Sequence record: MN850621.1
Origin: Escherichia phage dhabil
Reading direction: 5' to 3' (one strand)
DNA length: 64,000 nt
Positions 4,564 to 36,500 of the stretch are shown in pieces; position 1 is the first letter of the stretch; each line of letters begins with the position of its first letter. A program made the position numbers and the translations under genes. The notes under the pieces are model-generated. The model did no database searches, had not been told where the DNA came from, and saw nothing but the letters and a program-made list of their open reading frames with translations.

Positions 4564-5040
4564 TTATAAGGCGAGATACCAGCCGTTGTAATTACTCTTA
4601 CGGACTAGCTTTTTGATGGATTCTCTGTCACCAGAGAACTTAGGAGTGAACAGGACGTCGCCTGCCTCATTTACTGAAGTGTCGAATATAATTATACAGT
4701 CTGCAACTTTATGATTCAAGAGCGGTCCCAGGTTTATCCCTGTTCCATAAGGGAAGTCACCCGAGTATCCTGTAGTGCAGGAAATCCACTTAGAATCAGA
4801 TTGGTGGGTCTTGACCTCTACACGTAGTCCGCAGTACATAGGATGGGCTAAAACATCCCAGGCGTAGGTATAAGGGTCGTCATGGTCTTCCAGACCACTG
4901 TTGACATATCCTTTCAACCAATCAGCAACCATGTACTCTGCATACGTTGCAATAACACACCGAGTCAATACTTCTTTCTTATCTTGGGAGGGGTCTTGGC
5001 TTAAGGAATATAATACGGTATCCTTAATCTTGACCTTCAT
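4564..5040 (-). CDS. hypothetical protein; start uncertain
   Basis: In-frame ATGs at 5082 and 5040; 5040 chosen for SD GGTGA and no overlap; region corresponds positionally to T4 denB/ndd.x. Confidence 0.4.
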   Translation of the reverse strand: MKVKIKDTVLYSLSQDPSQDKKEVLTRCVIATYAEYMVADWLKGYVNSGLEDHDDPYTYAWDVLAHPMYCGLRVEVKTHQSDSKWISCTTGYSGDFPYGTGINLGPLLNHKVADCIIIFDTSVNEAGDVLFTPKFSGDRESIKKLVRKSNYNGWYLAL

Positions 5041-5053
5041 TTCACCCGTTAAA

Positions 5054-5353
5054 TCAGATGTCTTCAGGGTAAATGTCGGCATCGCTGCCAATCGGAGTAA
5101 CCCCGGGTTCGTCTTCACCATAAATGCCTCGAATATGAAGTTCACCATAATAAATTCGGTCGTTTGGTTCTAAAATATCGGAATCAATTAAAGGAAATTC
5201 ACCTTCGACCACCTCATCACATTCTAGAAAAGCGTAATGGACATCGCCAGGATGTTTAACGAGCTTAGCACAATAAACAGTACCTGCTCGATGGAACCCA
5301 CGCAAATTAGAAATCTTGATATCACGTTCACCGACATTTAGGTAATTAATCAT
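5054..5353 (-). CDS. hypothetical protein, 99 aa
   Basis: ORF-track start is GTG at 5362; ATG at 5351-5353 chosen. Confidence 0.4.
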   Translation of the reverse strand: MINYLNVGERDIKISNLRGFHRAGTVYCAKLVKHPGDVHYAFLECDEVVEGEFPLIDSDILEPNDRIYYGELHIRGIYGEDEPGVTPIGSDADIYPEDI

Positions 5354-5354
5354 T

Positions 5355-5552
5355 TTACTCACCGAAATAAGAAATACGAACCTCTAAACAATGCGCATAT
5401 GCACCCATCGCATCCAGTTGGGCAATCAGTAACCCTTGTTGACGGATATCAAGAGTTTCAAAAACACCACCTTTAATAAACTCTTCGAGAGCATTAATTT
5501 TCAGGACCAGTTGGTCGTATTCTTCAATTACACGTGCTTGGAAACCTAACAT
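5355..5552 (-). CDS. hypothetical protein, 65 aa
   Basis: ATG at 5550-5552 with SD GAGGAA; immediately downstream of rIIB. Confidence 0.45.
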   Translation of the reverse strand: MLGFQARVIEEYDQLVLKINALEEFIKGGVFETLDIRQQGLLIAQLDAMGAYAHCLEVRISYFGE

Positions 5553-9575: not shown

Positions 9576-11393
9576 TTACGACATCCAGGCCTTACGGAGT
9601 TGAGGGTCGTTCCCGAGGAGCATTTCGAACTGTTCTTTCCAATCTTCAGGCAATTGAACTACATCAAATTTAGGGTCTTGAATCATTCGACGGTATTCAG
9701 CTTTCTCAAGAGAACCTAAACCTTTAATATATCGAATAGAATGTTTCGGTAGAGAGTCCTTGGCTTTGGTATAACTAGGAACATCATAAAACCATTCTTG
9801 TTCTTTACCGACCTGGGCAATAATCACCGGAGTTTTACAGAATCTCACTCGACCTTGTTCGAACAATTCAGGCCATTGACTAAAGAAGGCTAGCAATGAT
9901 GGATAAATCGAACCAGTACCATCCACATCAGCATCGGTCATAATGGCGATATTACGATAGTTGGTTTTATCTGCAGGTTCGCCAATAACCAATCCAGTGA
10001 TTGCACAGATATCAAATAGTTCCTTATTCTTCATGATATCTGTTGCTGTCATTCCCCAGGTATTCATAACCTTACCACGTAATGGATAACCACCTTGAAG
10101 GTCTTTATTACGGACTTCAATGAAAGGACCCATAGCGGAATCACCTTCAGTCAAGAACAGGGTTGTATCGGCATCTTTACCGTATAAGTTAGCTTTAATA
10201 TGCTTATGGACCTTGGCTTTAGAAGCTTTCTTAGCAGCTTTAGTTTCAGCAGCCTTTTCAGCTGCTAATTTACGTGCTAAAGCAGCTTCGACGATAGGCA
10301 TAATAAGCCCTTCGTTTTTAAGAATATACTGTGAGATTTTCTTTGCATCAATTTGAATATGATTACGAATTTCACCGAATGGTGACGTCAAACGCTCTTT
10401 AGTCTGGGAATCAAAACGCATATTACTCATATCACGAATGAACATTACCATCGTAAGGCATTCTTTAACACGAGCCTTTGTTACTTCAATTCCACGATAT
10501 TTCTTTTTAATACCAGGCAGAAGGTGCTCACAAATATCATCGAATACACATTCAACGTGGTGACCACCATTCTTAGTGTGGATATTGTTTACATAAGTCA
10601 GTTGACGGAAACCATCTGGAGATGTAGTAAATGCCATTGAGACATTATCGGTTTCTTGAATTACTACATCTTTACCAAATTGATTAGCATACTTTTTAAA
10701 GTTACCATCTACTTTTTTACCATTAAAAGTAAATTGGATACTAGGATAAATTACAGCTAGGGTTTTAAGACGATCTAAAGTAATATCCAGATAAATTTGG
10801 GTCAAACTATTTTCTTCGAAATGGTTAAAGTCTGGAGTGAATATAACCGAAGTGCCTTTATCTTTGGATTTCTTAGTAGTCCAACCTTTGTTTTCCATTC
10901 CGTTAGAACAGTTAACAGTAATCTCATTCTCACCATCAGAGGTGATGCCTGTGAACAAAACGGAGAAGATATTAGTTAAACTACTACCGACACCATTCAT
11001 GCCACCTGTCTTACGCTCTGCGTCATCTCCAAAGTTACCACCAGCCTTTGGAATAGTCCATGCAGCTACAGGACCTGGAATTTGTTCACCGTTTTGGTCA
11101 GTAACCATTGCTTGTGGAATACCACGGCCATTATCAGAAACTGAAACCTGATTATTCTTAATTCGGACATCAATTTTGTTTGCGAATTTAAAATTAGTAC
11201 GAATAGCTTCATCGACAGAGTTATCAATGATTTCATCAATTAATTTAACTAGCCCTGGAACATAGTTCACCTGTGTAAAATTACCGAACAGGAATCGACC
11301 ATGGGCTTCATTAGCACTAGAGCCAATATACATCCCACTACGTTTTTTGATATGTTCAATGTCGGACAGTACTTTAATTTCATTCTTAATCAT
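9576..11393 (-). CDS. 39: DNA topoisomerase II large subunit (GyrB-like ATPase), continuous 39+60 ORF
   Basis: 605 aa, ATG at 11391-11393; GHKL ATPase plus TOPRIM region; length equals the sum of T4 gp39 and gp60, with no interruption. Confidence 0.9.
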   Translation of the reverse strand: MIKNEIKVLSDIEHIKKRSGMYIGSSANEAHGRFLFGNFTQVNYVPGLVKLIDEIIDNSVDEAIRTNFKFANKIDVRIKNNQVSVSDNGRGIPQAMVTDQNGEQIPGPVAAWTIPKAGGNFGDDAERKTGGMNGVGSSLTNIFSVLFTGITSDGENEITVNCSNGMENKGWTTKKSKDKGTSVIFTPDFNHFEENSLTQIYLDITLDRLKTLAVIYPSIQFTFNGKKVDGNFKKYANQFGKDVVIQETDNVSMAFTTSPDGFRQLTYVNNIHTKNGGHHVECVFDDICEHLLPGIKKKYRGIEVTKARVKECLTMVMFIRDMSNMRFDSQTKERLTSPFGEIRNHIQIDAKKISQYILKNEGLIMPIVEAALARKLAAEKAAETKAAKKASKAKVHKHIKANLYGKDADTTLFLTEGDSAMGPFIEVRNKDLQGGYPLRGKVMNTWGMTATDIMKNKELFDICAITGLVIGEPADKTNYRNIAIMTDADVDGTGSIYPSLLAFFSQWPELFEQGRVRFCKTPVIIAQVGKEQEWFYDVPSYTKAKDSLPKHSIRYIKGLGSLEKAEYRRMIQDPKFDVVQLPEDWKEQFEMLLGNDPQLRKAWMS

Positions 11394-11417
11394 GTTATTT
11401 CCTCATGTAGTAGGAGA

Positions 11418-11442
11418 ATATTATCCCATTTCACTTAAAGCA
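11418..11442 (-). promoter_or_regulatory. MotA-dependent middle promoter for gene 39
   Basis: Minus ttTATGCTTTA (MotA box TGCTTTA, plus 11436-11442), 12 bp, TAATAT (11418-11423), then SD GAGGAAA and ATG. Confidence 0.55.
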
Positions 11443-11459
11443 TAAAAGGGCCGAAGCCC
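11441..11459 (-). terminator. intrinsic terminator, UUCG loop
   Basis: Stem GGGC/GCCC 11448-11459 with loop cgaa, followed on minus strand by TTTTAT. Confidence 0.5.
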
Positions 11460-11720
11460 TTAATCAAATCGGATGGTCGACTTTTTAAAGAATAACCCAG
11501 AACAAACTGTTCCTTCAACCCTTTTACCTGTCGGACCTACAGCAATAAAGCCTGTACGTTGGAAATCATCTTCAGAACAGCCAAATAGGTTGTATCCTGT
11601 GATTTGGATTTGTTTGTAGCCATTTGCATCCAATACACGGGCGGCATTATCGGCATCAGTACAACCAACCAACGAAACTGCTAGTACCAGAGCTGCAATA
11701 GAACGATTAACGTATTTCAT
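11460..11720 (-). CDS. putative lipoprotein, 86 aa
   Basis: Signal peptide with lipobox LVGC near the N-terminus. Confidence 0.5.
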   Translation of the reverse strand: MKYVNRSIAALVLAVSLVGCTDADNAARVLDANGYKQIQITGYNLFGCSEDDFQRTGFIAVGPTGKRVEGTVCSGLFFKKSTIRFD

Positions 11721-11904
11721 AATTTCTCACTTAGTCAGCAGGTCGTAAAAACCGCCATTAACATGTTTAGGGGCCGAGACTAACCGAACAGCCAGCCGAT
11801 GGCAATCAGGACAAACATCGTTATCTCTTTCAGAGATTTTCTTGATTTTTTCGTATTCTTTTGCACAGTCTTCAGATTGGCATTTGTAATCATAAAGTGG
11901 CATG

Positions 11905-12342
11905 TTATTCCTTAAAGTGTGCTTTCAGCATCTGGTAAACGGTCCAGGCTTCAGAGTTATTAGAGATAGTGATTTTAGTCAAAGGGAAATCACTCGGTTC
12001 ATATGGGGCTGCATCTTCAGACTGGTCTTCGTCTTCAGAGAAACCATCTTCGGCCCATTCGTCTTCACTGTCAACTACAACCATTTCCGTAAAGAATTTA
12101 CGCTCGCTTGGATATAAAACCATATCAATGTTATCGCCATAAGCCAAGTCTGCATTAAATACATATCCAGCCGATACTCTAACAGGGCAAAAACCTTCAG
12201 AATTGACAATAATATCTGCTATAGAAGAATTATCAGGATTTCTAATATTATGGGAATTCAGCTTACGGAATTCAGCTTCTGCCGCGTCATCTTTAAAATA
12301 GTACCATTTACCTTTTTCAAATTCGAGTTCTTGATTAAGCAT
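11905..12342 (-). CDS. hypothetical acidic protein, 145 aa
   Basis: ORF-track start 12435 overlaps the upstream gene; moved to ATG 12340-12342 with SD GGAAGGAAA. Confidence 0.4.
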   Translation of the reverse strand: MLNQELEFEKGKWYYFKDDAAEAEFRKLNSHNIRNPDNSSIADIIVNSEGFCPVRVSAGYVFNADLAYGDNIDMVLYPSERKFFTEMVVVDSEDEWAEDGFSEDEDQSEDAAPYEPSDFPLTKITISNNSEAWTVYQMLKAHFKE

Positions 12343-12626: not shown

Positions 12627-13190
12627 TTATGCACGATGAATATTAGCATACTCGACAATAAAGCTTTCAGGAACCACCTTAAAAGTTCCAAGGAACACGA
12701 TGTTATAAAGCTTAACGCCTTCTTCAACCCACTGGTCTGTGATGTAACCGGACATGCTGGTGGTTTCATAAGTACCGAAAAGTTCGTCATCGTATTCAAA
12801 CGGCTTAGGGGAAACGAAAAAGACACCTTGACCTAATTCCCATTTAAAATCAACACCCACATGAGACTGGTCGATAGTTTCAACGTCTTGAGCTACTACG
12901 CCACGGATATCATTGCTTTCACATACATACCCATCATGGGATTCAACTTCTTCAACCACTGGGGTATGAACAAGTTCAGGAACTATTGGACGCGCTTTCC
13001 AGCCCTTAGAAATCAAAGTGACATAGCGTTCTTTAACATAACCTACAGTTGAAGAAACGAAACCACTGGAACGAAATGCCTGGACTTTAACAAGACCACG
13101 AGAGAAATTGAATCCAATAATAATACATTTTTTACCAGCAACTTTAGATTTAGAATCTTCGGAAACCGATACGATATCACCAATTTTCAT
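12627..13190 (-). CDS. hypothetical protein, 187 aa; paralog of 13268-13816
   Basis: C-terminal motif GYITDQWVEEGVKLYNIVFLGTFKVVP shared with the next gene (WVTDQWIEDGVELLNVVHAGDFSVVP). Confidence 0.5.
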   Translation of the reverse strand: MKIGDIVSVSEDSKSKVAGKKCIIIGFNFSRGLVKVQAFRSSGFVSSTVGYVKERYVTLISKGWKARPIVPELVHTPVVEEVESHDGYVCESNDIRGVVAQDVETIDQSHVGVDFKWELGQGVFFVSPKPFEYDDELFGTYETTSMSGYITDQWVEEGVKLYNIVFLGTFKVVPESFIVEYANIHRA

Positions 13191-13230
13191 AATATTACCT
13201 TTTGTTTAGGAATTAGGTTTATTCTCCATA

Positions 13231-13265
13231 AGAGCCATTATAACATGGCTCTCGATAAAGTAAAC
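13231..13265 (-). promoter_or_regulatory. early promoter with flanking inverted repeat
   Basis: Minus GTTTAC (13260-13265), N17, TATAAT (13237-13242); arms agagccat/atggctct. Confidence 0.55.
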
Positions 13266-13267
13266 TA

Positions 13268-13816
13268 TTAATTCAATACATTAACCACTGCACTACGAGG
13301 TACTACGCTAAAATCACCAGCATGTACAACGTTCAGCAGCTCAACACCATCTTCAATCCACTGGTCTGTTACCCAACCACAGATAGGATTATCAAAAGGA
13401 CGACGGATAGCCACAGCAGCACACAACAGGTCGGTAGGGCCTTGTTCTTCAACTTCTTGGAACAGGATGAACTCATCTTCATAAACCAGGTTTTTCTCTA
13501 TTTTGTTATTATCTAACCGGCGACCGTGGATGACGTAAGATTTGTCAAACCACTCACTTTTGGCGAATTCTTCAACAATAAATTCGCCTTCGCCAAAAAC
13601 ATAAGTCAGAGTTTTATAACCGGAAATCAGGGCCTTAGTTTTAAATTCAGGTTCAACCAGTTTGTAGGTTTTGCCGATTTCGATAGTCTGAGTAGTCATA
13701 GTGGGTTCCTTAATTTCCAATGGTTTAATAGGGGCTACATAAGTGCTTAAAACATCAAAATCAATCAATTTGGCCGCCGGGTTCGGTGTGTATTTGGGAT
13801 TATAATTAAATTTCAT
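13268..13816 (-). CDS. hypothetical protein, 182 aa; paralog of 12627-13190
   Basis: ATG at 13814-13816; shared C-terminal domain with the downstream gene. Confidence 0.5.
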   Translation of the reverse strand: MKFNYNPKYTPNPAAKLIDFDVLSTYVAPIKPLEIKEPTMTTQTIEIGKTYKLVEPEFKTKALISGYKTLTYVFGEGEFIVEEFAKSEWFDKSYVIHGRRLDNNKIEKNLVYEDEFILFQEVEEQGPTDLLCAAVAIRRPFDNPICGWVTDQWIEDGVELLNVVHAGDFSVVPRSAVVNVLN

Positions 13817-13818
13817 AA

Positions 13819-14322
13819 TTATCTCATTTCAATAAAATCTACGAGTTCAGCATGGGATTTGCGGAACATTACTTGGCGGTCACCAATGACTACCTCATCT
13901 TCAGGTATTTCGTAAACAGCAAGATAGAATCCTTTAGAAGATAATTCTTCGCGCTCTTCACGAGTGAACCAGCGCATCATATCATACTCGCTGGCAAAAG
14001 CAAAATGGTAGAGGTTAACAAACCAACCCGGAATATAATCGTCACAGTCTTCATAATCAGGTCGTTTCCACTTAGTTCTAATGGCTTTATTAGAATTTTC
14101 TACCAACAACTTATCTTGACTTGGTAGTGGGATATTTTTATTAATGCTATGATGATGTCTAAAAATAGGTCTGTCCAAACCTACTTCCAATAACCAGCCT
14201 TCACTCCATGAGTCTGTTGTACTTCTATACGGGGTCATTTGAGTACAGAGGTCTCGTCGTATTGTGATAGCGTTTCCATCATCTAAGATACTGAACGATG
14301 ACTCAACTCGATAAATTTTCAT
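13819..14322 (-). CDS. hypothetical protein, 167 aa
   Basis: ATG at 14320-14322 with SD GAGGAG. Confidence 0.45.
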   Translation of the reverse strand: MKIYRVESSFSILDDGNAITIRRDLCTQMTPYRSTTDSWSEGWLLEVGLDRPIFRHHHSINKNIPLPSQDKLLVENSNKAIRTKWKRPDYEDCDDYIPGWFVNLYHFAFASEYDMMRWFTREEREELSSKGFYLAVYEIPEDEVVIGDRQVMFRKSHAELVDFIEMR

Positions 14323-14329
14323 TTTGTTC

Positions 14330-14378
14330 TCCTCATGTTGATAGGGTAGATAATATCATGTCATGAGGAGAAGTAAAC
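14330..14378 (-). promoter_or_regulatory. promoter cassette with RBS-pairing stem
   Basis: Minus GTTTAC (14373-14378), N17, TATTAT; arms tcctcatg / catgagga. Confidence 0.55.
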
Positions 14379-14382
14379 ACTT

Positions 14383-15057
14383 TTATCGATTTTTTACACT
14401 TAATGGGTCTGGATTCTCAGGAACATCTTCTAGGTTTAAAGCATATCGTTGGGCATATTTCAGCATCAAGATATCCTTAGCACAGTCATGGATAGAGTCA
14501 TGAGCAACAAAACCATTCAATGTTCCGTTAGGCAGAGGGCACATGCTCAATCCTCGCGTCAGTGAATACGCTTCAATAGCTGTACGGATATCACGTTGGT
14601 TCCAGAATTTAACCGGTTCCAACTTGGTGGTATCGATTTCGTTCTCAGGAACACCTTCAGAACGATAAGCATCGCGAATAAGGTCCACTAAGATTGGAAA
14701 GTCAAAGGACATTCCGCGACACCACATCTGGGATTTCCATTGGTCCACTTCGTTTTTACGACAGTATTCCAGGAAATTACCAAGGCCGATAGAAGTAGTC
14801 ACATCAATTTCGGACGGAGCCAGGTTTTTACGTGCTTCAGGTCCTTGTTCTTTCCACCACTGCAATGTGCTTTTAGAGAACAGACGTTTATCACGTTGAG
14901 AAGCCAAATCGAATTTAATACGAAGGCCGCGTTGAGTAAGCTCTTCAAAAGATTCTACTACCTCTGGATTAGGGTCATAAGCAATTACGGCGAGGTCAAT
15001 AACTGCTGCATTTTGGGTAGTGGCAAAGGTTTCAAAGTCAATAATTATATCTTTCAT
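14383..15057 (-). CDS. dexA: exonuclease A (DnaQ-like 3'-5' exonuclease)
   Basis: 224 aa; N-terminal IIIDFETF acidic exonuclease motif; size and position as T4 dexA. Confidence 0.75.
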   Translation of the reverse strand: MKDIIIDFETFATTQNAAVIDLAVIAYDPNPEVVESFEELTQRGLRIKFDLASQRDKRLFSKSTLQWWKEQGPEARKNLAPSEIDVTTSIGLGNFLEYCRKNEVDQWKSQMWCRGMSFDFPILVDLIRDAYRSEGVPENEIDTTKLEPVKFWNQRDIRTAIEAYSLTRGLSMCPLPNGTLNGFVAHDSIHDCAKDILMLKYAQRYALNLEDVPENPDPLSVKNR

Positions 15058-21392: not shown

Positions 21393-21914
21393 TTAATAAC
21401 CTCGGTCTTGACGAGCAAAGTTCTCGGCATTTTTCAGATAATACAGTTTAAAGATTTCTTCAGCGGTCAGTCCAAGACCCTGGAACATATTAAGAACAAA
21501 GTGCAGAATATCAATCATCTCGAATTTGATTTCGAGCTGGTCTTCAGGAGACAACTCGTCAATACGACGATTACGGAATTCAGCATGTTGGGCTTTCCAA
21601 GGCTTCCACACACTAGAGGCAGCTTTTTCGCCATTACTCATACCGCCAAGAGAAGTCAGCAGTTCACGGAATTCATCATCAATATAATCTTTCTGGTTGC
21701 GAAGCCAATCAACAACTTGACCTGCTGTAGCTAGTTCATCAGGATTGGTGTTGAATTCCGATTTTTCAGTGGCCAGACGAACCTGTAATGATTTCTGCAT
21801 ATCAAGCATAACTTGCAGAGGGTCTTTATCTTCGTGAATCAGAGCATTAAAATAAGCTTCTTCAGCTTTATCAGCACCAGCAATAAGTTGAGAACATTCA
21901 TTAAAATGAGCCAT
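21393..21914 (-). CDS. 56: dCTP pyrophosphatase (gene 56)
   Basis: 173 aa; size and position between soc and 61 as T4 gp56. Confidence 0.65.
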   Translation of the reverse strand: MAHFNECSQLIAGADKAEEAYFNALIHEDKDPLQVMLDMQKSLQVRLATEKSEFNTNPDELATAGQVVDWLRNQKDYIDDEFRELLTSLGGMSNGEKAASSVWKPWKAQHAEFRNRRIDELSPEDQLEIKFEMIDILHFVLNMFQGLGLTAEEIFKLYYLKNAENFARQDRGY

Positions 21915-28331: not shown

Positions 28332-28409
28332 TATATTTTTCCATAGGCACCATTATATTTTTCTCACGTTTTTAAGATAGGGTAATTATATCACTTCACA
28401 GCTATAGCA

Positions 28410-28541
28410 TTACTTAATTCCTCGGTTGATAGCCTTATCGACTATCTTCCGAACTTCTCGTTTCTCGAGCCAGCATAATACTAGAAGGGCTCCGAAAGAG
28501 AATAATAACAAACCTATAAAAAGCAATAGAGGACCTAGCAT
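28410..28541 (-). CDS. small membrane protein, 43 aa
   Basis: ATG at 28539-28541 with SD GAGGACG; hydrophobic MLGPLLLFIGLLLFSFGALLVLCW; below ORF-track cut-off. Confidence 0.3.
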   Translation of the reverse strand: MLGPLLLFIGLLLFSFGALLVLCWLEKREVRKIVDKAINRGIK

Positions 28542-29428
28542 ACTACGTCCTCATAACGTGGCATTTCGTACTCAGAATGAATATGGGCACCGAAATAAAT
28601 GAATTCAGCCAGACCAGGATGGAATACTAAACCTGGGTTCTCATGATAAATGATATGTGGTCTTGATTTCAGAATCTGATAATATTCAACCTTACTCGGT
28701 TTGAATTTAACAATCTCTACATCAGGACGATAGTCTTCACGCTTAAATGAATCATTCGGGTCGGTGATATAAAGACGAGCACCTTCAGCGGCAGCTTGGT
28801 CTACAACTCTTTCGAATTGATAGCACTTATCCGAAATACGGAATGGATGGAAAATACCATCAATTTTAATAGGCGCTAGACCATCAGAGTAACGCTCAAT
28901 TACTGCAGGATTAATTACCTTTTGGTCTACAAAAATCTTATCAGAGGATGCACCTCGTGACACCAGGACGTCTTTCTGGCATTGATTCAGGACTGTAGTA
29001 TAAAGTGAACGTTCAACTGAAGCCACATCAATATCAATGAACTCATCGATATAATAACGAGGAACTTCAGGGTCCATTGTGATATTAAAGTTGAATTGTA
29101 CAGTATGAGCACCATCATAACCGGTGATATCGGTTACCAGTCCTGAGCAATCATAGTATTCGATTAGTGAATCGACTACAAACTCATTTTCGGACCAGAA
29201 ATGTTTACGGGTTTCATAAGCATTTTCTTTATACCAAAGTGGTACGAAATTCAGTTCTGGGAATAATTCAATGCATTCTTTGATATCGCTCGAATTTCTA
29301 GGATAAGCCAGATAATCACCTGGACGAGCACGATTTAAATGGAGTTGAAAATTACCGTCCTTAAGGACGGCATATTCACCTGTTTCGTAACTACGCATAC
29401 TGAAAATAGGAACGATAAACAAACTCAT
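28535..29428 (-). CDS. hypothetical protein, 297 aa, at the beta-glucosyltransferase locus; candidate modification transferase
   Basis: ATG overlaps the stop of the ThyA-family gene (ATGA); no motif recognised; sits where T4 has beta-gt. Confidence 0.5.
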   Translation of the reverse strand: MSLFIVPIFSMRSYETGEYAVLKDGNFQLHLNRARPGDYLAYPRNSSDIKECIELFPELNFVPLWYKENAYETRKHFWSENEFVVDSLIEYYDCSGLVTDITGYDGAHTVQFNFNITMDPEVPRYYIDEFIDIDVASVERSLYTTVLNQCQKDVLVSRGASSDKIFVDQKVINPAVIERYSDGLAPIKIDGIFHPFRISDKCYQFERVVDQAAAEGARLYITDPNDSFKREDYRPDVEIVKFKPSKVEYYQILKSRPHIIYHENPGLVFHPGLAEFIYFGAHIHSEYEMPRYEDVVC

Positions 29429-30123
29429 TTCAGGAAACCTCGGACGTAGTCAAAATCACGTTCAAACACGTGTGCACTTACCATGGTGTGGGAATACGTA
29501 CCTAAACCGACACCACACTGTTCGGCAATAAATGCCATCAGTTTACCCTGCAGATAGAAATCCAGCTGCATAACAACAGCGCAGTTTTGTGAACGCATAT
29601 GGGTATGTGCGTACAAACGACCATCACGAATATAATACGTTACTGAATCGGTGCACGGGTATTCTAAGGATTCGTCAGAATCAAGGAGGGCTTGGTCTTG
29701 TTCTTGGAGAATCTGGAACACAACTCTTCGCGAGTTAGCCTTTTCTTTAAGCTCTTTAAGTAGGGCTGGGAGCTGGGCCACAATTCGAGGTCCATAGAAA
29801 GTGTTGAAGTTTGCAGGCAATACGTCACTTTTCGGCTTATCAATGAACTTAGCAACATTAGGGTATTCCTTAAATGCTTCGGCAGCGTCAGTACCACCAG
29901 AAATCATAAATTTCCAAAAGGATTCGGCATATTCATAACTGATACGATTGATACGTGGGTCGGTGAATTTATAGGTGCTGGCATCCAGTACTTCTACTGA
30001 AGCAGAACCAATTTCATAACAGCGTCCGATACGAGAATCAACTGCAAACTGTGGAGCTTCCAGGATTTCTTCGTTCATTTGTTTAAATGCGTTTTCAAAA
30101 CTAACAGCGGTAATGTGTTTCAT
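29425..30123 (-). CDS. 42: ThyA-family pyrimidine hydroxymethylase, dCMP hydroxymethylase-like
   Basis: 232 aa; SRR phosphate loop, Cys nucleophile in YPCTD, Asp 31 residues after the Cys (QLDFY), the position that is Asn in thymidylate synthase and Asp in dCMP hydroxymethylase. Confidence 0.65.
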   Translation of the reverse strand: MKHITAVSFENAFKQMNEEILEAPQFAVDSRIGRCYEIGSASVEVLDASTYKFTDPRINRISYEYAESFWKFMISGGTDAAEAFKEYPNVAKFIDKPKSDVLPANFNTFYGPRIVAQLPALLKELKEKANSRRVVFQILQEQDQALLDSDESLEYPCTDSVTYYIRDGRLYAHTHMRSQNCAVVMQLDFYLQGKLMAFIAEQCGVGLGTYSHTMVSAHVFERDFDYVRGFLK

Positions 30124-30656
30124 TTATTCACCTTATTTTCAATATATTCGTTCAGACGTTTTAATTCTACCATATCAACATTAAGCAAATTATTATGACC
30201 GTCATGATTTAAGATTTTAAACACGTTTTCAAAACATGTTTCGTATTGCTGGATAGTTAGGTTGAACTCATCTTTGGTTAATTTAATAAGGTCATCTTCG
30301 AAGTCTTCGTCTAATGGGTTGCGAGTTAAAATAACCTCGATAACGTTAAATTCAGATTTAAACCCTTTCCAATCTTCCAGTTCTACATAAGGGTCCATTT
30401 CACCACGAAGGAATCCTGAGTAAACAATATTACTTGGATAACCACGGTCAAGGATATAAACGAAATTAGGGTCTAAAAACTTATACAGAGTTTCAACTAA
30501 AGCCTTATCGTTATCAGTTCCTAATGAAATACACTTGCCATTAATCTTTTTAGGAAAATCAATAAGGCGGTATTTCTTATTGGATAACAGATTTTTAATT
30601 AAAGTGGACTTCCCGGAATTATCCGGGCCGTCTATAACAATGATTTTTGGATTCAT
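30120..30656 (-). CDS. P-loop nucleotide kinase, thymidylate-kinase-like
   Basis: 178 aa; Walker A IDGPDNSGKST; DR[YH] motif LDRGYPSNIVYSG; ATGA overlaps on both sides. Confidence 0.55.
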   Translation of the reverse strand: MNPKIIVIDGPDNSGKSTLIKNLLSNKKYRLIDFPKKINGKCISLGTDNDKALVETLYKFLDPNFVYILDRGYPSNIVYSGFLRGEMDPYVELEDWKGFKSEFNVIEVILTRNPLDEDFEDDLIKLTKDEFNLTIQQYETCFENVFKILNHDGHNNLLNVDMVELKRLNEYIENKVNK

Positions 30657-31051
30657 GGATGATAGGCCTTATAACTATCAAGAGTTCCTTCACGAACCAA
30701 TTCTTTAAAGTGGTCAGGACGGATTGCTCGGTCATCGATGATAAAAGTATAACTCGGCTTGTGTGTAAGCAAATTGTGATATTTCAATCCAATTTTTTCA
30801 AGATTCTTAACCAATGCAGGAACTACTTCAACCAAGATTCGACCTGGGCCACATGAAGTCATGCCACGGGCAGTGAACAATGTAATCTCGTACCCTTCAT
30901 CATAAAGCTTATTAATCATGGACACCATTTCGGTGTCCGGTTTAAAGTTCTCATAATCACGGTCATGGTTCCAAATCGTGATTGTGTTATCGATATCAAA
31001 ACATAAATGTGGCTTATTTTCTACTCGATGCGACATTAAATTTTCTTCCAT
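30653..31051 (-). CDS. HAD-superfamily phosphatase
   Basis: 132 aa; motif I FDIDNTIT (DxDxT), motif II LFTARG, motif IV FIIDDR. Confidence 0.6.
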   Translation of the reverse strand: MEENLMSHRVENKPHLCFDIDNTITIWNHDRDYENFKPDTEMVSMINKLYDEGYEITLFTARGMTSCGPGRILVEVVPALVKNLEKIGLKYHNLLTHKPSYTFIIDDRAIRPDHFKELVREGTLDSYKAYHP

Positions 31052-32709
31052 TGTTTGTGGAGTTCAGTAGAACCTGTAGGTTTATATTTTACACCAGTTT
31101 CCTGGTCAAGCAAAACCCACTTATCAGGACAACGAGTAATAATTTGAGCCGTAATAGGGTCACGAACTTCATCGACAAATTCACCCGTAATAAGCTTACG
31201 CTTACGAGGATGCCGCTTCAGCAGCACACTCAGTTGATACAAACCATTATAATAAGCACCCAGAGCTTTCAGAGGGTTATTCTTAAAGTAACCTGCCAGA
31301 GCCATCCAAATAACGGCAATCCAGAGCTTGTGCTTAAATGTGCACATAGGGATATCGTCTAAAGGCATAACCTTTTCGATATCAACGAATACACGAGTTC
31401 CGTTACGAGTTAATCCACCCCATAGAGGGTCTGAGTTAAATTTATCATAGCCATCGATAGAATAAAGCACCTTAGCTTCATCATAAATCGCAGGGCCTTT
31501 AGAACTATTACCGAAATAACCGCGTGGGTCGATGATTTTAATATCACCTTCGTCCGACAGCATAATATTACTGTAGTGCGGGTCGCCATGAATAAGTTGG
31601 TATGGTTCTTTATGTTCAGACAGAATTTCTAGTGCATGGCGGAGAAGTTTTTCAGGGTCGCCTACTTTGAAATCGTTAACGTGGGTAATGCCTTGTGGAG
31701 CAAAGCCTTCAATCAATCCAGCAATAGAAGCATTACGAATAAGGACCTTGTCCAATACTTCTTTCTTAACATCAGAATACCATTGTTCATCGGACGGATT
31801 ATCGATAGTTCCACCAAATGAACGTAATGCACTAATGACCTTATAAACCATGAGGACTTTAGTTTCTTTGGACATAAAGCGGTAGGCATCTGCCATGGTA
31901 CGACCAAAGATACGTTCCATTTTAATGAATTCGCCTGGAGAAAAGTCCACAATACTAGGAACAAATTCAGAATCAATAGAATTATACCAATTGATTTCTT
32001 TAGATTGAATTTCTTTACCTAATTCGTTAGTTGGTACTTTAATGGCCAGATTCTCAGTGAATTCTAATTTATTAAATTCACGATTGATTTCAGATTCTTC
32101 ATGGGCCTTAGCCAGTTTCAATTTGTCACCGACATCAACTACAAAGTCTAGTTTACGTTCGGTCAAATAGACCATTGAATCCAGGTTATCAGCAAGGTCT
32201 TCACCATAATTAGAACGGTCGAAACCTGTCCAGTTAGCCACCTGATACAAACCAACTACGCCACCACCAGTACCAATTTCACGTAAATATGGTTCTTCGA
32301 ATGTAAAACGACAGTCGGTTCCATAGGTATAACAGTAGTCGTTACCCCATTCAACTTTATGACCGATAGGAATGATGTCACACCAGTTAAACAAGACATT
32401 ATGGCCAATGATATCTTCGGCAATGCAATCGATAGCATGGGCCGAACCATTAGCAACATCAACGTTACGAATAGTGAATTTAGGCTTATCGCCAGTAATC
32501 ATGTTAATGGATTTAATATAGCCTTTAACGAGGTCGTTAAATTTGCTGTGGATAACCAGAATAATTTCATCTGATTGGTTACTATACAAATCATACAAAT
32601 GTTTTAATACAGTATGTTGTTTGTAGTTAACCAATACCTTCGGGATTTCGTTAGTAATTGGATACAACCGTGAGCCAAGACCTGCGCCTAAAATAACAAC
32701 CTTTTTCAT
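31036..32709 (-). CDS. bifunctional sugar-1-phosphate nucleotidyltransferase / APH-ChoK-family kinase
   Basis: N-terminus VVILGAGLGSRLYPIT (RmlA/GlmU/LicC-type loop); C-terminus HGDPHYSNIM and IIDPRG (kinase catalytic loop); start moved from 32739 to ATG 32707-32709 with SD GAGGAA. Confidence 0.6.
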   Translation of the reverse strand: MKKVVILGAGLGSRLYPITNEIPKVLVNYKQHTVLKHLYDLYSNQSDEIILVIHSKFNDLVKGYIKSINMITGDKPKFTIRNVDVANGSAHAIDCIAEDIIGHNVLFNWCDIIPIGHKVEWGNDYCYTYGTDCRFTFEEPYLREIGTGGGVVGLYQVANWTGFDRSNYGEDLADNLDSMVYLTERKLDFVVDVGDKLKLAKAHEESEINREFNKLEFTENLAIKVPTNELGKEIQSKEINWYNSIDSEFVPSIVDFSPGEFIKMERIFGRTMADAYRFMSKETKVLMVYKVISALRSFGGTIDNPSDEQWYSDVKKEVLDKVLIRNASIAGLIEGFAPQGITHVNDFKVGDPEKLLRHALEILSEHKEPYQLIHGDPHYSNIMLSDEGDIKIIDPRGYFGNSSKGPAIYDEAKVLYSIDGYDKFNSDPLWGGLTRNGTRVFVDIEKVMPLDDIPMCTFKHKLWIAVIWMALAGYFKNNPLKALGAYYNGLYQLSVLLKRHPRKRKLITGEFVDEVRDPITAQIITRCPDKWVLLDQETGVKYKPTGSTELHKQWKKI

Positions 32710-32769
32710 TATCTGTTCCTCAAGTGAATGTAGATACATTATACACTATTTTTAATAAATTTCTATTGC

Positions 32770-33270
32770 TTAAATCTTATCTTTACCGTATTCCATGCAC
32801 TGTTCTACTGCAGCAGGCACTTTGGTCTTAAGCTTGTTGATTTGTTTCTTATAATCGCGCGCCTTATCGAAGCTCTCGGTTTCGAGCATTTCGTAATAAC
32901 GGGCCTCGTGGACGGAAATCTGTAGATTGATATGGTTTACACACATCGCGTACAGTTTCTGCTTTTTGTACAAATCATCTTGGCGCTTCATTTCTGCCTG
33001 GTGTTTGGCTAGTACCGCTTCACGCTTAGACTCTTGTTCACGTTGGAATTCGATTTCCCTTTGAGCATATTTTGCACAGTTATTACCACATTGATTATTA
33101 GCTCGGGTATACACAAGTCCAGAACCAGCACGGAATTTCATTTCGCCGTCGAATTGTTTCTGTTCAGCTGCAATACGAGCTTTACCAACTTCATCAGCCG
33201 AAACTGCATCGCCGTATTGGACCGCGCAACCTGATAGGAGCATACTCATTGCGATAATTAACTTTTTCAT
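32770..33270 (-). CDS. putative lipoprotein, 166 aa
   Basis: Signal peptide with lipobox LLSGC; coiled-coil-like remainder. Confidence 0.5.
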   Translation of the reverse strand: MKKLIIAMSMLLSGCAVQYGDAVSADEVGKARIAAEQKQFDGEMKFRAGSGLVYTRANNQCGNNCAKYAQREIEFQREQESKREAVLAKHQAEMKRQDDLYKKQKLYAMCVNHINLQISVHEARYYEMLETESFDKARDYKKQINKLKTKVPAAVEQCMEYGKDKI

Positions 33271-33288
33271 AATATCCTCAATTAAAAC

Positions 33289-33415
33289 AGTTATACTTAA
33301 TTTGTGCTATAAGAATAATCCATCCCATGATTAATGTTGGAATCATTGGAGGAATTGCCACTGCCCAATAAATGGTAAAGGCAACCATTATAAGAAATAA
33401 AATAATTATCTTCAT
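33289..33415 (-). CDS. small membrane peptide, about 41 aa
   Basis: ATG overlaps the imm stop (ATGA); MKIIILFLIMVAFTIYWAVAIPPMIPTLIMGWIILIAQIK. Confidence 0.3.
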
Positions 33416-33710: not shown

Positions 33711-36422
33711 TTAAAAGTCAAACATGTCAAATAATGTTGCTTTTTTCTCGTAGTCGATTTTAGCAGACTCAGTAAAACCGGTCAGAGGTTTGATAAAGGT
33801 CTTTTGGAACAGTACATTGTAGTCCATCCAACGGAGGACTTGGTCACGAATCTGAATCGGAAGTTCAATACCTGACGGCCATGCCATACAAGCTTCACCG
33901 AACGGGTTGCCTTCTTTAAGTGGCAGTACATATACCTTTTCACCATCAACGATACGAGGCATAGTCAAATCACCGGCAGAAGCACGCATGTAAGCTAAGC
34001 AACCTTTGATGTGGTACGGACATTTAGAACCAGGGAAACCGCCTTCATTATATTTCTCGATGTTGTTAGCACTGGATACTGCAGCAATGCTTACATAGTC
34101 TAGTTCGTTAAATTCCTTATTAAACTGTTTGAAATATTCTTGCAAAGAGGCCTCGCCTTCTTGAAGCATACGTCGGATACATTCTTTCAGAGCTTTCTGA
34201 ACCGCTTTAGGTGTACTTGATTTCTGGGTTTCGAGACCCATGATTTTCAAGTGTGGTTCGGCATAGCGAGTACCTTCCATGTCCCAAACGTTCAGTGCAT
34301 AACGTTTCTTGCCTGTCCAGAATCCACCAAGACCTTTAGAACCAAGTGGAGGACCAGCGATAGCTTCTCGGTCCATGAACATCAAGTGCTGTTTATTGTT
34401 CATGTATTCACACATCTCACGGAAGCCTGCATCAATAGCTGGTTCCATACGTTCACGTGCAAATTTATCTAAGAAGTCGACCCAGTGGTTGGTATCACGG
34501 AATTTGTCTTCGCCTACTTTATTGATGATTGCATCGGCCTTAACATAAATGGAGTCGGTATCACCATAGAGCACGAACTTCTGGTTTTCAGTCTTGCACA
34601 CACCATTCAGATATTCGTTAACCTTACGTTCAATCCATTGGAGGGCCATTTGACCAAACAATGTTATTGCAGTTGCGTTCCTGAGGTCATAGTAACGGAA
34701 CCATACGTTACCAAGTGCACCATAAAGGGAGTTGATAAGCAATTTACGGTTAATCTGAGCAGTCATACCTGCGACTTCAGTACGTTCGGCTTTGAACAAC
34801 ATTTCTTTTAAAGAAGAGGCTGACAATTTTTTAATCTGGGCTTTGACTTCGTCAGAGAAGTCGAAACGATAATCAACATCCAATGGACTATCAACAGACA
34901 GATTAGGATTTTCTAATGCTTCTTTAATTAACTCACCATTACGTTGAGCTGCAAGCATATAACCTTTATGTTCTTTACGTTGTAAGAACACCTTCGTGAT
35001 TTCTGTAGGAATCACACCATCACGGTCTTTATAGTACATCATGCCGTTAGGAGAGCAACTGTAGGTGTCGCTAGGACGCGGAGCAGTTCCGGCAATATAT
35101 TCATGTATCGGCGCGTTTGCGAATGTCCCTGCGATGGTCTCTGGGCTTATATTCACTTGTCGAATGATACTCGGGTACAGAGATGTAAGGTCGAAACTCA
35201 TTACATATTTGTACGCGTTAGGAATAGGTTCCTTAACGAAAGCGCCTGGATAAGGTTGAACCGCATGCGATTTGGCCTGAGGAATAACTTTACCCTGTTC
35301 TTTAAGGCTATTAAAGATAATAGCGTCCCAAGTCTTAATTGGACTGAACACCGACTGAATCTGCATCTTGGCATAGTAACCCATGTCCAGACTAAGAAGA
35401 ATGAACTGGCGTTTCATATCAATCTGCACAACACGATATACGTCGATAATGTTATAGGAAATATATCGTTGGTGGTTCGTCTCACGTAACTTGGAGATAG
35501 GACCATCATATTTCAACTTACCTACTTTCAATTCATATTCAGAAACGTAATCCAGAGAATAAGAAGGCTGGTTAGTAAAGCTGAATTTTTTATAAAGGTC
35601 GATATAATCCAGAACAGAGATACCGAACAGTGTAATAATTTCGCGAGCGCCGTACATGTTCTCGATAACTTTAACACGAGTCTTACGATGCGGGCTTAAT
35701 CGCTTAGCAGTGTTCTCACCAAACAGATTTTTCAGACGGTTATAAACGTATGGCACGTCAAATGATTCAACGTTCCATCCAGTCAAAATCACAGGAGTTT
35801 TCTGTTGCCAGAAATTAAGATACTCAAGCATCATTTCTTCTTCAGAATTAAACGGAAGATAAACGATTTTGTCAATGATTTCCTGTGGAACTTCGTCACC
35901 ACCTTCGTCTTGGAGTTTCTCAGCGATTTTAATCGACCACTCTTCGACCGTACCATAAGGTGAAACTAAAAGGTCGAATACATAGAATTTATCATCAATC
36001 GAGTCGTAGTGAGTAATGGCATCGATAGGATGTTTAGCCTGGGCAGGTTCAGGGAATCCATCAGGAGATGTTACCTCGATGTCGAAGTTAGCAATACGAA
36101 TCTTAGAAGAATCATACTTGATTTCTTTACGATAGGTATCAGACAAATAGGCTAATTTATAGTCATCCATACCAAGGGCTTCGAGACCCATATCGTCCAT
36201 GCGCTTCATCCACTGAGAAGCATCGCGCATTGAATCGAATTCTTTCTTAACACAGCCCTTACCGTAGATGTCAATATATTTTACGGCTTGCTCTGGGTTA
36301 GCATGCATAAACATTGTAGGCTTGTAAGGAACTTCACGACTACGTTCGTTACCATTTTTATCGATGTAACGTTCGAGAATATTATCACCGATTTGTTCGA
36401 CTGTCAAATAGAATTCTTGCAT
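33711..36422 (-). CDS. 43: DNA polymerase (gene 43, family B)
   Basis: Near-collinear with T4/RB69 gp43 as recalled (YGDTDS and other family-B motifs); ORF-track TTG start at 36482 rejected; ATG at 36420-36422 (MQEFYLTVEQ) with SD AAAGGA. Confidence 0.95.
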   Translation of the reverse strand: MQEFYLTVEQIGDNILERYIDKNGNERSREVPYKPTMFMHANPEQAVKYIDIYGKGCVKKEFDSMRDASQWMKRMDDMGLEALGMDDYKLAYLSDTYRKEIKYDSSKIRIANFDIEVTSPDGFPEPAQAKHPIDAITHYDSIDDKFYVFDLLVSPYGTVEEWSIKIAEKLQDEGGDEVPQEIIDKIVYLPFNSEEEMMLEYLNFWQQKTPVILTGWNVESFDVPYVYNRLKNLFGENTAKRLSPHRKTRVKVIENMYGAREIITLFGISVLDYIDLYKKFSFTNQPSYSLDYVSEYELKVGKLKYDGPISKLRETNHQRYISYNIIDVYRVVQIDMKRQFILLSLDMGYYAKMQIQSVFSPIKTWDAIIFNSLKEQGKVIPQAKSHAVQPYPGAFVKEPIPNAYKYVMSFDLTSLYPSIIRQVNISPETIAGTFANAPIHEYIAGTAPRPSDTYSCSPNGMMYYKDRDGVIPTEITKVFLQRKEHKGYMLAAQRNGELIKEALENPNLSVDSPLDVDYRFDFSDEVKAQIKKLSASSLKEMLFKAERTEVAGMTAQINRKLLINSLYGALGNVWFRYYDLRNATAITLFGQMALQWIERKVNEYLNGVCKTENQKFVLYGDTDSIYVKADAIINKVGEDKFRDTNHWVDFLDKFARERMEPAIDAGFREMCEYMNNKQHLMFMDREAIAGPPLGSKGLGGFWTGKKRYALNVWDMEGTRYAEPHLKIMGLETQKSSTPKAVQKALKECIRRMLQEGEASLQEYFKQFNKEFNELDYVSIAAVSSANNIEKYNEGGFPGSKCPYHIKGCLAYMRASAGDLTMPRIVDGEKVYVLPLKEGNPFGEACMAWPSGIELPIQIRDQVLRWMDYNVLFQKTFIKPLTGFTESAKIDYEKKATLFDMFDF

Positions 36423-36480
36423 TTCATTTCCTTTATAGACGAGTGATTGTCTTTTGTTTGTTGATGAATCATTATACTCC

Positions 36481-36500
36481 AAAAAAGGGACCGAAGTCCC
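36481..36500 (-). terminator. intrinsic terminator, UUCG loop
   Basis: Stem GGGAC/GTCCC 36487-36500, loop cgaa, minus-strand TTTTTTGG, followed by TATAAT. Confidence 0.6.

Follow-up and report, generated by a model that had tools for sequence, protein, structure and literature searches.

Five genes (positions 28535-32709) located between imm and uvsX in a 64,000-nucleotide stretch of DNA from Escherichia phage dhabil (MN850621.1; the whole stretch is called the window, and positions are counted along it) likely constitute the Dhakavirus version of the RB69-type arabinosyl-5-hydroxycytosine (ara-5hoC) DNA hypermodification pathway. Established here are the orthology of all five genes with those of phage RB69, the active-site signature of a ThyA-family enzyme, a GT-B fold in the model of a putative glycosyltransferase, and the absence of other genes from the genome. 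The system is already published for sister genera, in which the pathway was characterized in 2025-2026, and has been flagged bioinformatically for Dhakaviruses, which are named among the genera with a syntenic cluster (Lee et al., PMC13326640); the form described here is a minimal one of five genes. An earlier sequence-only reading of this DNA had proposed a hypermodification system that builds its own nucleotide-sugar donor and is coupled to a ThyA-family enzyme, which our comparisons support. It had also considered the identity with the RB69 pathway undecidable from sequence; it is decidable, as all five genes are RB69 orthologs.

Layout and orthology of the cluster

The region compared comprises approximately 4.9 kb (28410-33270) inside the window. 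It is 100% identical to the corresponding DNA of Escherichia phage dhaeg (MN850609, genus Dhakavirus) and 92-99% identical in roughly 45 further Dhakaviruses besides JS98, JS10, CLB_P2 and IME08. In the dhaeg record, the window corresponds to the reverse complement of positions 107203-170817 together with the first 385 bases, and all genome-wide tests of gene presence and absence were run on the complete dhaeg genome (170,817 bp). The map order is uvsX, 297-aa protein, ThyA-like protein, P-loop kinase, HAD phosphatase, fusion enzyme, lipoprotein, a 45-aa open reading frame (ORF), imm and gene 43. The five-gene block is tightly packed on the minus strand:

28535-29428, minus strand: glycosyltransferase of modeled GT-B fold, 297 aa; ortholog of RB69 gp46:47 and DLP3 gp79
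29425-30123, minus strand: predicted ThyA-family 5-hydroxy-dCMP synthase, 232 aa; ortholog of RB69 gp48
30120-30656, minus strand: thymidylate-kinase-like P-loop nucleotide kinase, 178 aa; ortholog of RB69 gp45
30653-31036, minus strand: predicted HAD-family sugar-bisphosphate phosphatase (AfhF-like); ortholog of RB69 gp51
31036-32709, minus strand: predicted sugar-phosphate 1-kinase/sugar-1-phosphate nucleotidyltransferase fusion (AfhE-like), 557 aa; ortholog of RB69 gp52:53

The ORFs are real genes, with DNA matches in 117 phage records and protein homologs in approximately 350. All five orthologs were found when RB69 proteins were searched against the whole dhaeg genome with tblastn, and the annotation of JS98 already labels these genes as RB69 orf047c-, 048c-, 045c-, 051c- and 052c-like. 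In RB69, gp46/47 and gp52/53 each represent one gene that sequencing errors broke in two (PMC13326640, PMC6024577).

The ORF positions, the minus strand and the fusion length of 557 aa given by the sequence-only reading were all confirmed, and every motif it had quoted is present in the translations (GAGLGSRLYPIT, HGDPHYSNIM and IIDPRG in the fusion; DIDNT, TARG and IIDDR in the phosphatase; GPDNSGKST and DRGYPS in the kinase; the Cys in YPCTD and the Asp in QLD of the ThyA-like protein). Its gene list between imm and uvsX held up in that every listed ORF is real, and fell short in that the 45-aa ORF at 33278-33415 was overlooked. The last four genes had been described as chained by 4-nt ATGA overlaps, and we read the three overlaps directly in the sequence (HAD to kinase, kinase to ThyA-like, ThyA-like to 297-aa protein); the junction of the fusion and HAD genes is TAATG, a 1-nt overlap of stop and start. 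The fusion start at 32709 is an ATG that is preceded by a GAGGAA Shine-Dalgarno sequence, coincides with the GenBank start and gives 557 aa. A 567-aa version, the mechanical ORF from an upstream ATG, was rejected because that ATG lacks a ribosome-binding site. The HAD protein has 127 aa, or 132 aa if its start is placed at 31051.

The ThyA-family enzyme and the modified base

Judged by its sequence, the ThyA-family enzyme is a synthase of 5-hydroxy-deoxycytidine monophosphate (5-hydroxy-dCMP, 5hodCMP) and not a dCMP hydroxymethylase. The modified base is predicted to be 5-hydroxycytosine (5hoC) carrying an ether-linked sugar, and not hydroxymethylcytosine (hmC), because the enzyme carries the D169N substitution and resembles RB69 gp48 far more than T4 gp42.

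The protein matches the Pfam family Thymidylat_synt (PF00303, E 3.6e-13, above the cut-off), and its catalytic Cys in YPCTD aligns with C146 of E. coli ThyA. At position 169 (E. coli ThyA numbering) the window enzyme and RB69 gp48 have Asn (RSQN), whereas T4 gp42 (RSND), phage td and E. coli ThyA (RS(V/C)D) have Asp; the aligned stretches read HMRSQNCAVVMQLD in the window enzyme and RB69 gp48, NMRSNDVVFGFRND in T4 gp42 and YQRSCDVFLGLPFN in E. coli ThyA. The full signature of the window enzyme comprises D169N, N177D (the Asp in QLD) and L143E (the Glu in LEYPC) in addition to the Cys nucleophile. By tblastn, the protein is 79.7% identical to RB69 gp48 as against 24.5% to T4 gp42 (159 residues), and its residues 1-231 match PDB entries 9iqu, 9iqc and 9ir2 with E 2e-125, whereas T4 gp42 (1b49) is matched with only E 1.5e-4. 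Neither Asp at 169 nor close gp42 similarity, the marks of a T4 gp42-type enzyme, was found for the window protein in the alignment, the tblastn comparison and the PDB search.

These assignments draw on biochemistry from related phages. RB69 gp48 makes 5-hydroxy-dCMP from dCMP in experiments, with flavin bound and with oxygen from O2 (18O was incorporated), and Asn at ThyA position 169 is diagnostic, as nine further D169N enzymes all produced 5-hydroxydeoxycytidine (5hodC) (PMC13326640). Mass spectrometry and nuclear magnetic resonance of RB69 and DLP3 DNA revealed arabinose ether-linked to 5-hydroxycytosine, not to hmC (Lee et al., NAR 2026, PMC13326640), and an independent study of Mosigvirus NP found the same structure and termed the earlier hmC assignment erroneous (PMC13390438).

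The sequence-only reading had instead seen a gp42-type dCMP hydroxymethylase, with the sugar attached to 5-hydroxymethylcytosine. The ThyA fold, the Cys nucleophile and the Asp at the pyrimidine-specificity position are indeed all common to gp42, the gene sits in the gene-42 position between imm and uvsX, and arabinosyl-hmC was reported for RB69 in older literature (PMC6024577), a report since corrected (PMC13326640, PMC13390438). For the RB69 ortholog this model is already refuted, its hmC assignment having been explicitly retracted by later work (PMC13390438), and gp48 shows the oxygen incorporation and flavin binding given above. The window enzyme has the Asn169 found in every tested 5hodCMP synthase, where gp42 retains Asp; this residue, the closeness to gp48 and the matches to 9iqu and 9iqc all rule against a hydroxymethylase, which we regard as highly improbable.

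The fusion enzyme, the phosphatase and the nucleotide kinase

In the fusion, Pfam recognizes an NTP_transferase domain (residues 13-110, E 3.4e-8) and an APH domain (residues 356-427, E 9.5e-6), and phrog_4098 is matched over the full length (residues 1-557 of 559, E 3.6e-268). In more than 360 phages, tblastn alignments cover the whole protein (100%). The protein is 41% and 44% identical to RB69 gp52 and gp53, respectively, is collinear with p053 plus p052, and is likewise collinear with the Bas46, LC53 and DLP3 (gp82) proteins at 45-48% identity; its catalytic loops GAGLGSRL, HGDPHYSN and IDPRGYFG are kept in 7 of 7 aligned phages.

The HAD protein contains a nucleophile motif (DIDNT), shares 62% identity with RB69 p051 (gp51) and matches PDB 9iqw (E 3.6e-54), 1xpj (E 8.7e-12) and phrog_1238; we infer from entry 9iqz that 9iqw, of the same 9iq* series, belongs to phage HY126. 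It adjoins the fusion, as an AfhF-type phosphatase adjoins its AfhE partner, with its start at the fusion stop codon. Its match to the TIGR01689 capsule-phosphatase subfamily fell below the cut-off. A role in capsule or lipopolysaccharide (LPS) sugar metabolism, suggested by the database label "capsule biosynthesis protein," was rejected, as the HAD gene is ATGA-chained to the hydroxylase operon and its product matches 9iqw. Database names for these genes are inconsistent: the HAD protein appears as "phosphoheptose isomerase" or "capsule biosynthesis protein," the hydroxylase as "thymidylate synthase" or "dCMP hydroxymethylase," and the transferase or a neighboring gene as "RNA polymerase binding protein."

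The thymidylate-kinase-like kinase has a GPDNSGKST P-loop and matches phrog_761 ("thymidylate kinase," E 6.8e-40). It is 38% identical to RB69 p045 (gp45) and 84% identical to the Marfa protein, matches solved kinase structures only weakly, and overlaps its neighbors by ATGA on both flanks.

In the HY126 route, as summarized by Lee et al. (PMC13326640) from He et al. (Nat Chem Biol 2026), AfhE phosphorylates C1 of arabinofuranose-5-phosphate, the HAD protein AfhF then strips the 5-phosphate, and the nucleotidyltransferase domain of AfhE finally forms UDP-arabinofuranose. The sequence-only reading had the phosphatase act first to release a free sugar; in that summary the characterized homologs follow the opposite order, with C1 phosphorylated before the 5-phosphate is removed (PMC13326640).

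Absent genes and the proposed pathway

Searches of the 170,817-bp genome with tblastn and phmmer/hmmsearch found no arabinose-5-phosphate isomerase (RB69 p055). The U32-like protein (p050), p049 and the second arabinosyltransferase (p003) were missing as well. A homolog of T4 alpha-gt or beta-gt was also absent genome-wide (tblastn, E<=0.01), the best phmmer matches (E 0.06 and 0.42) being noise, in agreement with the sequence-only reading, which had proposed a non-glucosyl system. The DLP3 cluster is without a U32-like gene, yet DLP3 makes ara-5hoC; the U32-like gene is therefore not essential. The phage isomerase is a feature of the characterized clusters and not of the AfhE enzyme family itself.

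Arabinose-5-phosphate is an intermediate that E. coli, Klebsiella and Proteus each produce on the way to 3-deoxy-D-manno-octulosonic acid (Kdo). From the absence of a second transferase and of an isomerase in the genome, it is predicted that the product is mono-arabinosyl-5hoC only and that arabinose-5-phosphate comes from host KdsD/GutQ, an activity cited in PMC6024577. Phage Thanatos, with a single transferase, has mono-arabinosylated DNA (PMC13326640).

Following homology at every chemical step, the pathway would run as follows. A phage dCTPase would supply dCMP, which the ThyA-family enzyme would hydroxylate at C5 with O2 and flavin to give 5-hydroxy-dCMP. This would be phosphorylated, probably by the phage gp1-type deoxynucleoside monophosphate kinase, possibly with a contribution from the thymidylate-kinase-like enzyme of the cluster, and then be incorporated into DNA in place of C. 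In parallel, the C-terminal kinase domain of the fusion would phosphorylate C1 of D-arabinose-5-phosphate, the HAD phosphatase would strip the 5-phosphate to leave arabinofuranose-1-phosphate, and the N-terminal nucleotidyltransferase domain of the fusion would convert this to UDP-arabinofuranose. The 297-aa enzyme would finally move one arabinose onto the 5-hydroxyl in an ether link. The dCTPase, a T4 gp56 homolog encoded at 21393-21914, is a presumed accessory supplier of the dCMP substrate by analogy with the T4/RB69 paradigm (PMC13326640), and a gp1-type kinase is also encoded by the phage.

The 297-aa protein, a probable glycosyltransferase

The 297-aa protein had no sequence match in Pfam, NCBIfam or PDB. 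An AlphaFold2 model, for which 117 homologs were gathered and 78 aligned, reached a predicted local distance difference test (pLDDT) of 95.4 and a predicted template modeling score (pTM) of 0.90, and its Foldseek matches were all GT-B enzymes that use UDP-sugars. The model most resembles the retaining transferases of family GT4, T4 alpha-GT and the glycosyltransferase of HY126, with 6kih as the top structural match; RB69 gp46:47 has 6kih as its top match too, at a nearly equal Z (PMC13326640). The protein is 65% identical to RB69 gp46, 70% to gp47 and 49.5% to DLP3 gp79, and its gene overlaps the hydroxylase gene by ATGA. The glycosyltransferase function that the sequence-only reading had assigned to this protein is thus supported at the level of the modeled fold, and by orthology we propose that the protein is the base-proximal alpha-arabinosyltransferase.

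Two published results bear on this proposal. The first arabinosylation on 5hoC-DNA could not be reconstituted, single transferases giving no transfer, and it might happen on the mononucleotide (PMC13326640). The 300-aa GT-fold protein TH1_063 of Thanatos is reported to act as a UDP-xylose pyrophosphorylase in vitro (PMC12838424); it is probably a homolog of the 297-aa protein. The 297-aa protein could then form a nucleotide sugar or glycosylate a mononucleotide instead of transferring sugar to DNA, with the thymidylate-kinase-like enzyme phosphorylating arabinosyl-5ho-dCMP and the modification being pre-replicative. Such a scheme would offer a rationale for the dedicated kinase that is kept in every cluster and is here ATGA-coupled between the HAD and hydroxylase genes. 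Several points speak against it: the modeled fold is GT-B, near GT4, T4 alpha-GT and the HY126 enzyme, and not a nucleotidyltransferase fold; a nucleotidyltransferase domain is already present in the fusion; an RB69 gp1-type kinase phosphorylates 5hodCMP and unglycosylated 5hodC enters DNA in E. coli (PMC13326640); and glycosylation in the T4 paradigm is post-replicative. We consider modification at the nucleotide level unlikely and retain DNA arabinosylation by the 297-aa protein as our proposal.

Fusion clades and loss of the isomerase

Homologs of the fusion comprise approximately 80 records that are 60-100% identical to that of the window (Dhakavirus, Klebsiella Marfa-like phages and some Proteus phages) and 287 records below 60%. 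Isomerase homologs occur in 276 records, among which Klebsiella phages are essentially missing. In pairwise matrices comparing isomerase-less dhaeg, Marfa and SJ_PmiM with isomerase-carrying Bas46, LC53, DLP3 and phiP4-3, the fusions of the first three phages were mutually 71-82% identical and only 44-50% identical to those of the other four; the window fusion itself is 81.5% identical to that of Marfa and 72.6% to that of SJ_PmiM. Polymerase and UvsX identities do not track this grouping. The Bragaviruses phiP4-3 (with isomerase) and SJ_PmiM (without) illustrate this: their fusions are 50% identical, as compared with 93-94% for UvsX, the U32-like protein and a flanking gene, 86% for the transferase, 82% for the hydroxylase and 74% for the HAD protein and the kinase.

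Between the isomerase groups we counted 28 fixed differences in the fusion, 2 in the thymidylate-kinase-like kinase and none in the HAD, transferase or ThyA-like proteins. Those in the fusion include G12A/S13T/E21H at the nucleotidyltransferase loop and H378N/Y379F at the kinase catalytic loop, and the divergence is spread over the entire protein and not confined to its kinase or nucleotidyltransferase half. Isomerase absence co-varies with a distinct fusion clade in three genera, a comparative observation that seems to be new, and we read the pattern as an exchange of the sugar-activating enzyme that went together with loss of the phage isomerase. The sugar is most likely still arabinose, because the downstream enzymes are unchanged between the groups; the ara-5hoC of DLP3, made without a U32-like gene, points the same way.

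The same data could be taken to indicate another donor for unchanged 5-hydroxycytosine chemistry. In the isomerase-less phages (Dhakavirus, Marfavirus and part of Bragavirus; approximately 80 genomes), the horizontally exchanged fusion clade may accept another NTP or a different, abundant pentose phosphate of the host (ribose-5-phosphate, for example) and yield a different 5hoC glycoside. Consistent with this are the co-variation itself, with about 80 fusion records against 287, 276 isomerase matches and none genome-wide in dhaeg; the phiP4-3 and SJ_PmiM fusions, half identical despite far closer flanking genes; and the fixed differences, which reach both catalytic-loop regions. Such a sugar would be isobaric with arabinose, and mass alone could not separate the two; if it exists, a 5hoC glycoside with the mass of ara-5hoC and another chemistry (for example ribofuranosyl) would bring to three the kinds of sugar attached to 5hoC in coliphages. 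The HAD protein and the transferase, which handle the sugar downstream, have no group-specific substitutions, the transferases of the Bragavirus pair remain 86% identical across differing fusion clades, and better scavenging of the host arabinose-5-phosphate pool explains the pattern without a new sugar. We therefore find a change of sugar improbable and keep arabinose as the predicted donor sugar. In a weaker version, the anti-restriction modification of isomerase-less phages may depend obligately on KdsD/GutQ of the host.

Several observations nevertheless weigh against the ara-5hoC assignment as a whole, in addition to the failed reconstitution and the activity of TH1_063 described above. 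We found no nucleoside analysis of any Dhakavirus in the literature. RB69, DLP3, LC53 and Bas46 all carry the isomerase, but this genome does not. The fusion is only 41-48% identical to its counterparts in RB69, Bas46, LC53 and DLP3, which are reported to contain ara-5hoC (the comparison covered these four), some of its fixed differences adjoin both active-site loops, and its proposed substrates, arabinose-5-phosphate and UTP, are extrapolated from the characterized enzymes. Lastly, any role of the thymidylate-kinase-like kinase in the cluster is putative.

Module boundaries and neighboring features

Further features in and around the region are the following:

21393-21914, minus strand: dCTPase, T4 gp56 homolog, 173 aa; GenBank dhaeg_232 "dCTP pyrophosphatase"; outside the five-gene cluster
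32738-32765, minus strand: promoter-like site TAGAAA-16-TATAAT directly ahead of the fusion gene; closest to consensus within the region, 10/12 positions
32770-33270, minus strand: lipoprotein; lipobox LLSGC; phrog_1754
33278-33415, minus strand: 45-aa hydrophobic ORF (MKIIILFLIMVAFTIYW...) between imm and the lipoprotein

Gaprivervirus VR20 has the order 43-imm-lipoprotein-uvsX, with the five modification genes absent and a lipoprotein homolog 54% identical to that of the window. Because VR20 has imm, lipoprotein and uvsX without them, the block at 28535-32709 behaves like a single, discrete unit of insertion or deletion, and the lipoprotein travels with imm. The sequence-only reading was right to call the 32770-33270 product a lipoprotein, the lipobox being present, but its inclusion in the system did not survive the VR20 comparison, and the lipoprotein was rejected as a pathway member; it resembles an envelope gene or one related to superinfection. 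In Serratia LC53 and Edwardsiella PEi26, more distant lipoprotein homologs border the cluster on its gene-43 side. The lipoprotein occupies 32770-33270 (minus strand) in the window and 5001-5504 in the compared locus L015.

The 45-aa ORF overlaps the imm stop by ATGA and is homologous to RB69 p054 (56%) and phrog_3610; it probably encodes a small membrane protein that is translated together with imm. Farther along, the mechanical ORF of the DNA polymerase (33711-36482, minus strand, 923 aa from a TTG) is too long; the start given by GenBank and by homology to RB69 gp43 is an ATG, yielding 903 aa (MQEFYLTVEQ...).

Transcription of the five genes as a unit may begin at the promoter-like site (32738-32765), on weak evidence: the region holds 20 promoter-like sites compared with 17.5 in shuffled sequence, and both promoter and terminator scans were at chance level. 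At the other end, the five-gene block is bounded downstream by a 203-bp untranslated spacer (28332-28534) between the transferase gene and uvsX. This spacer, in which two TATAAT-like elements occur ("gtgatataatt" and "aaatataatgg"), probably holds the promoter of uvsX.

The best-conserved protein of the related clusters, at 82-94% across genera, is the product of a gene resembling U32 "peptidases," which is absent from the window; in the compared loci it lies at 12899-14409 (L011), 10129-11289 (L010) and 10787-11947 (L009), and in Serratia LC53 it adjoins a gene with a chorismate-mutase domain. TrhP and RlhA, two enzymes of the U32 family, hydroxylate RNA at C5 of U or C in a reaction that depends on prephenate and not on O2. 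By analogy, the U32-like gene could provide an anaerobic route to 5-hydroxycytosine, one that Dhakaviruses, which have no such gene, would lack.

Implications

The cluster would shield the DNA of the phage against restriction enzymes and CRISPR nucleases while exposing it to type IV enzymes, with a bearing on host range and on the choice of therapeutic coliphages; Dhakaviruses such as JS98, JS10 and CLB_P2 are therapy candidates. Its minimal five-gene form suggests that the isomerase, the U32-like gene and extra transferases are dispensable, and predicts dependence on host Kdo-precursor metabolism. Gene "42" of Dhakaviruses would be better named 5-hydroxy-dCMP synthase than dCMP hydroxymethylase or thymidylate synthase, and the labels "hypothetical," "capsule biosynthesis" and "phosphoheptose isomerase" within the cluster are due for replacement.

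Comparison with known systems

The closest characterized relatives are the clusters of RB69, HY126 and Bas46-47 (Mosigvirus; the Afh genes, RB69 gp45-gp55 plus gp3), to which the window contributes five orthologous components in the same slot between gene 43 and uvsX. The window differs in having no isomerase p055, U32-like p050, p049 or second arabinosyltransferase p003, in the position of its kinase, which lies between the HAD and hydroxylase genes whereas that of RB69 adjoins uvsX, and in a fusion of another clade; its predicted product is mono-arabinosyl-5hoC, as opposed to the mono- and di-arabinosyl forms of the RB69 type. Acinetobacter phage DLP3 (Lazarusvirus; gp76-gp83), which makes tri-arabinosyl-5hoC, has the same core without a U32-like gene, at 41-71% identity to the window proteins, and adds an isomerase as well as two transferases (gp76 and gp77) that extend the sugar to a second and a third arabinose. 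Two further phages, Marfa of Klebsiella (Marfavirus) and SJ_PmiM of Proteus (Bragavirus), share with the window the lack of an isomerase and the same fusion clade, and Marfa also has its gene order (fusion-HAD-kinase-(U32)-hydroxylase-transferase); unlike the window, both keep the U32-like gene. No experimental characterization of the Marfa or SJ_PmiM clusters was found in the literature.

With T4 (gp42, alpha-gt and beta-gt) the window shares the overall scheme of its proposed pathway, in which a ThyA-family enzyme acts on dCMP ahead of replication, followed by a GT-B enzyme that draws its sugar from a UDP donor, as well as the chromosomal position and the possession of a dCTPase and a gp1-type kinase. 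The T4 gene order, uvsX-segA-b-gt-42-imm-imm.1-43, bears out the comparison drawn by the sequence-only reading, which had given T4 only gene 42 and beta-gt in this interval. The predicted C5 chemistry differs, a hydroxyl from O2 and flavin in the window as compared with a hydroxymethyl from folate in T4; the sugar is predicted to be ether-linked directly to the ring, with no alpha-gt or beta-gt homologs; and the donor must be made by the phage because Enterobacteria have no nucleoside diphosphate arabinose.

The bacterial ADP-heptose pathway (HldE and GmhB) follows the same logic, as a functional analogy and not as a homologous system: one domain of a bifunctional enzyme phosphorylates C1, a small HAD phosphatase strips the distal phosphate, and the other domain makes the nucleotide sugar. 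The kinase is of the APH/choline-kinase type in the window and of the ribokinase type in HldE, while HAD orthologs match GmhB-type structures (PMC13326640, Table 1). The window system would place a pentose on DNA, whereas the bacterial pathway places a heptose on LPS.

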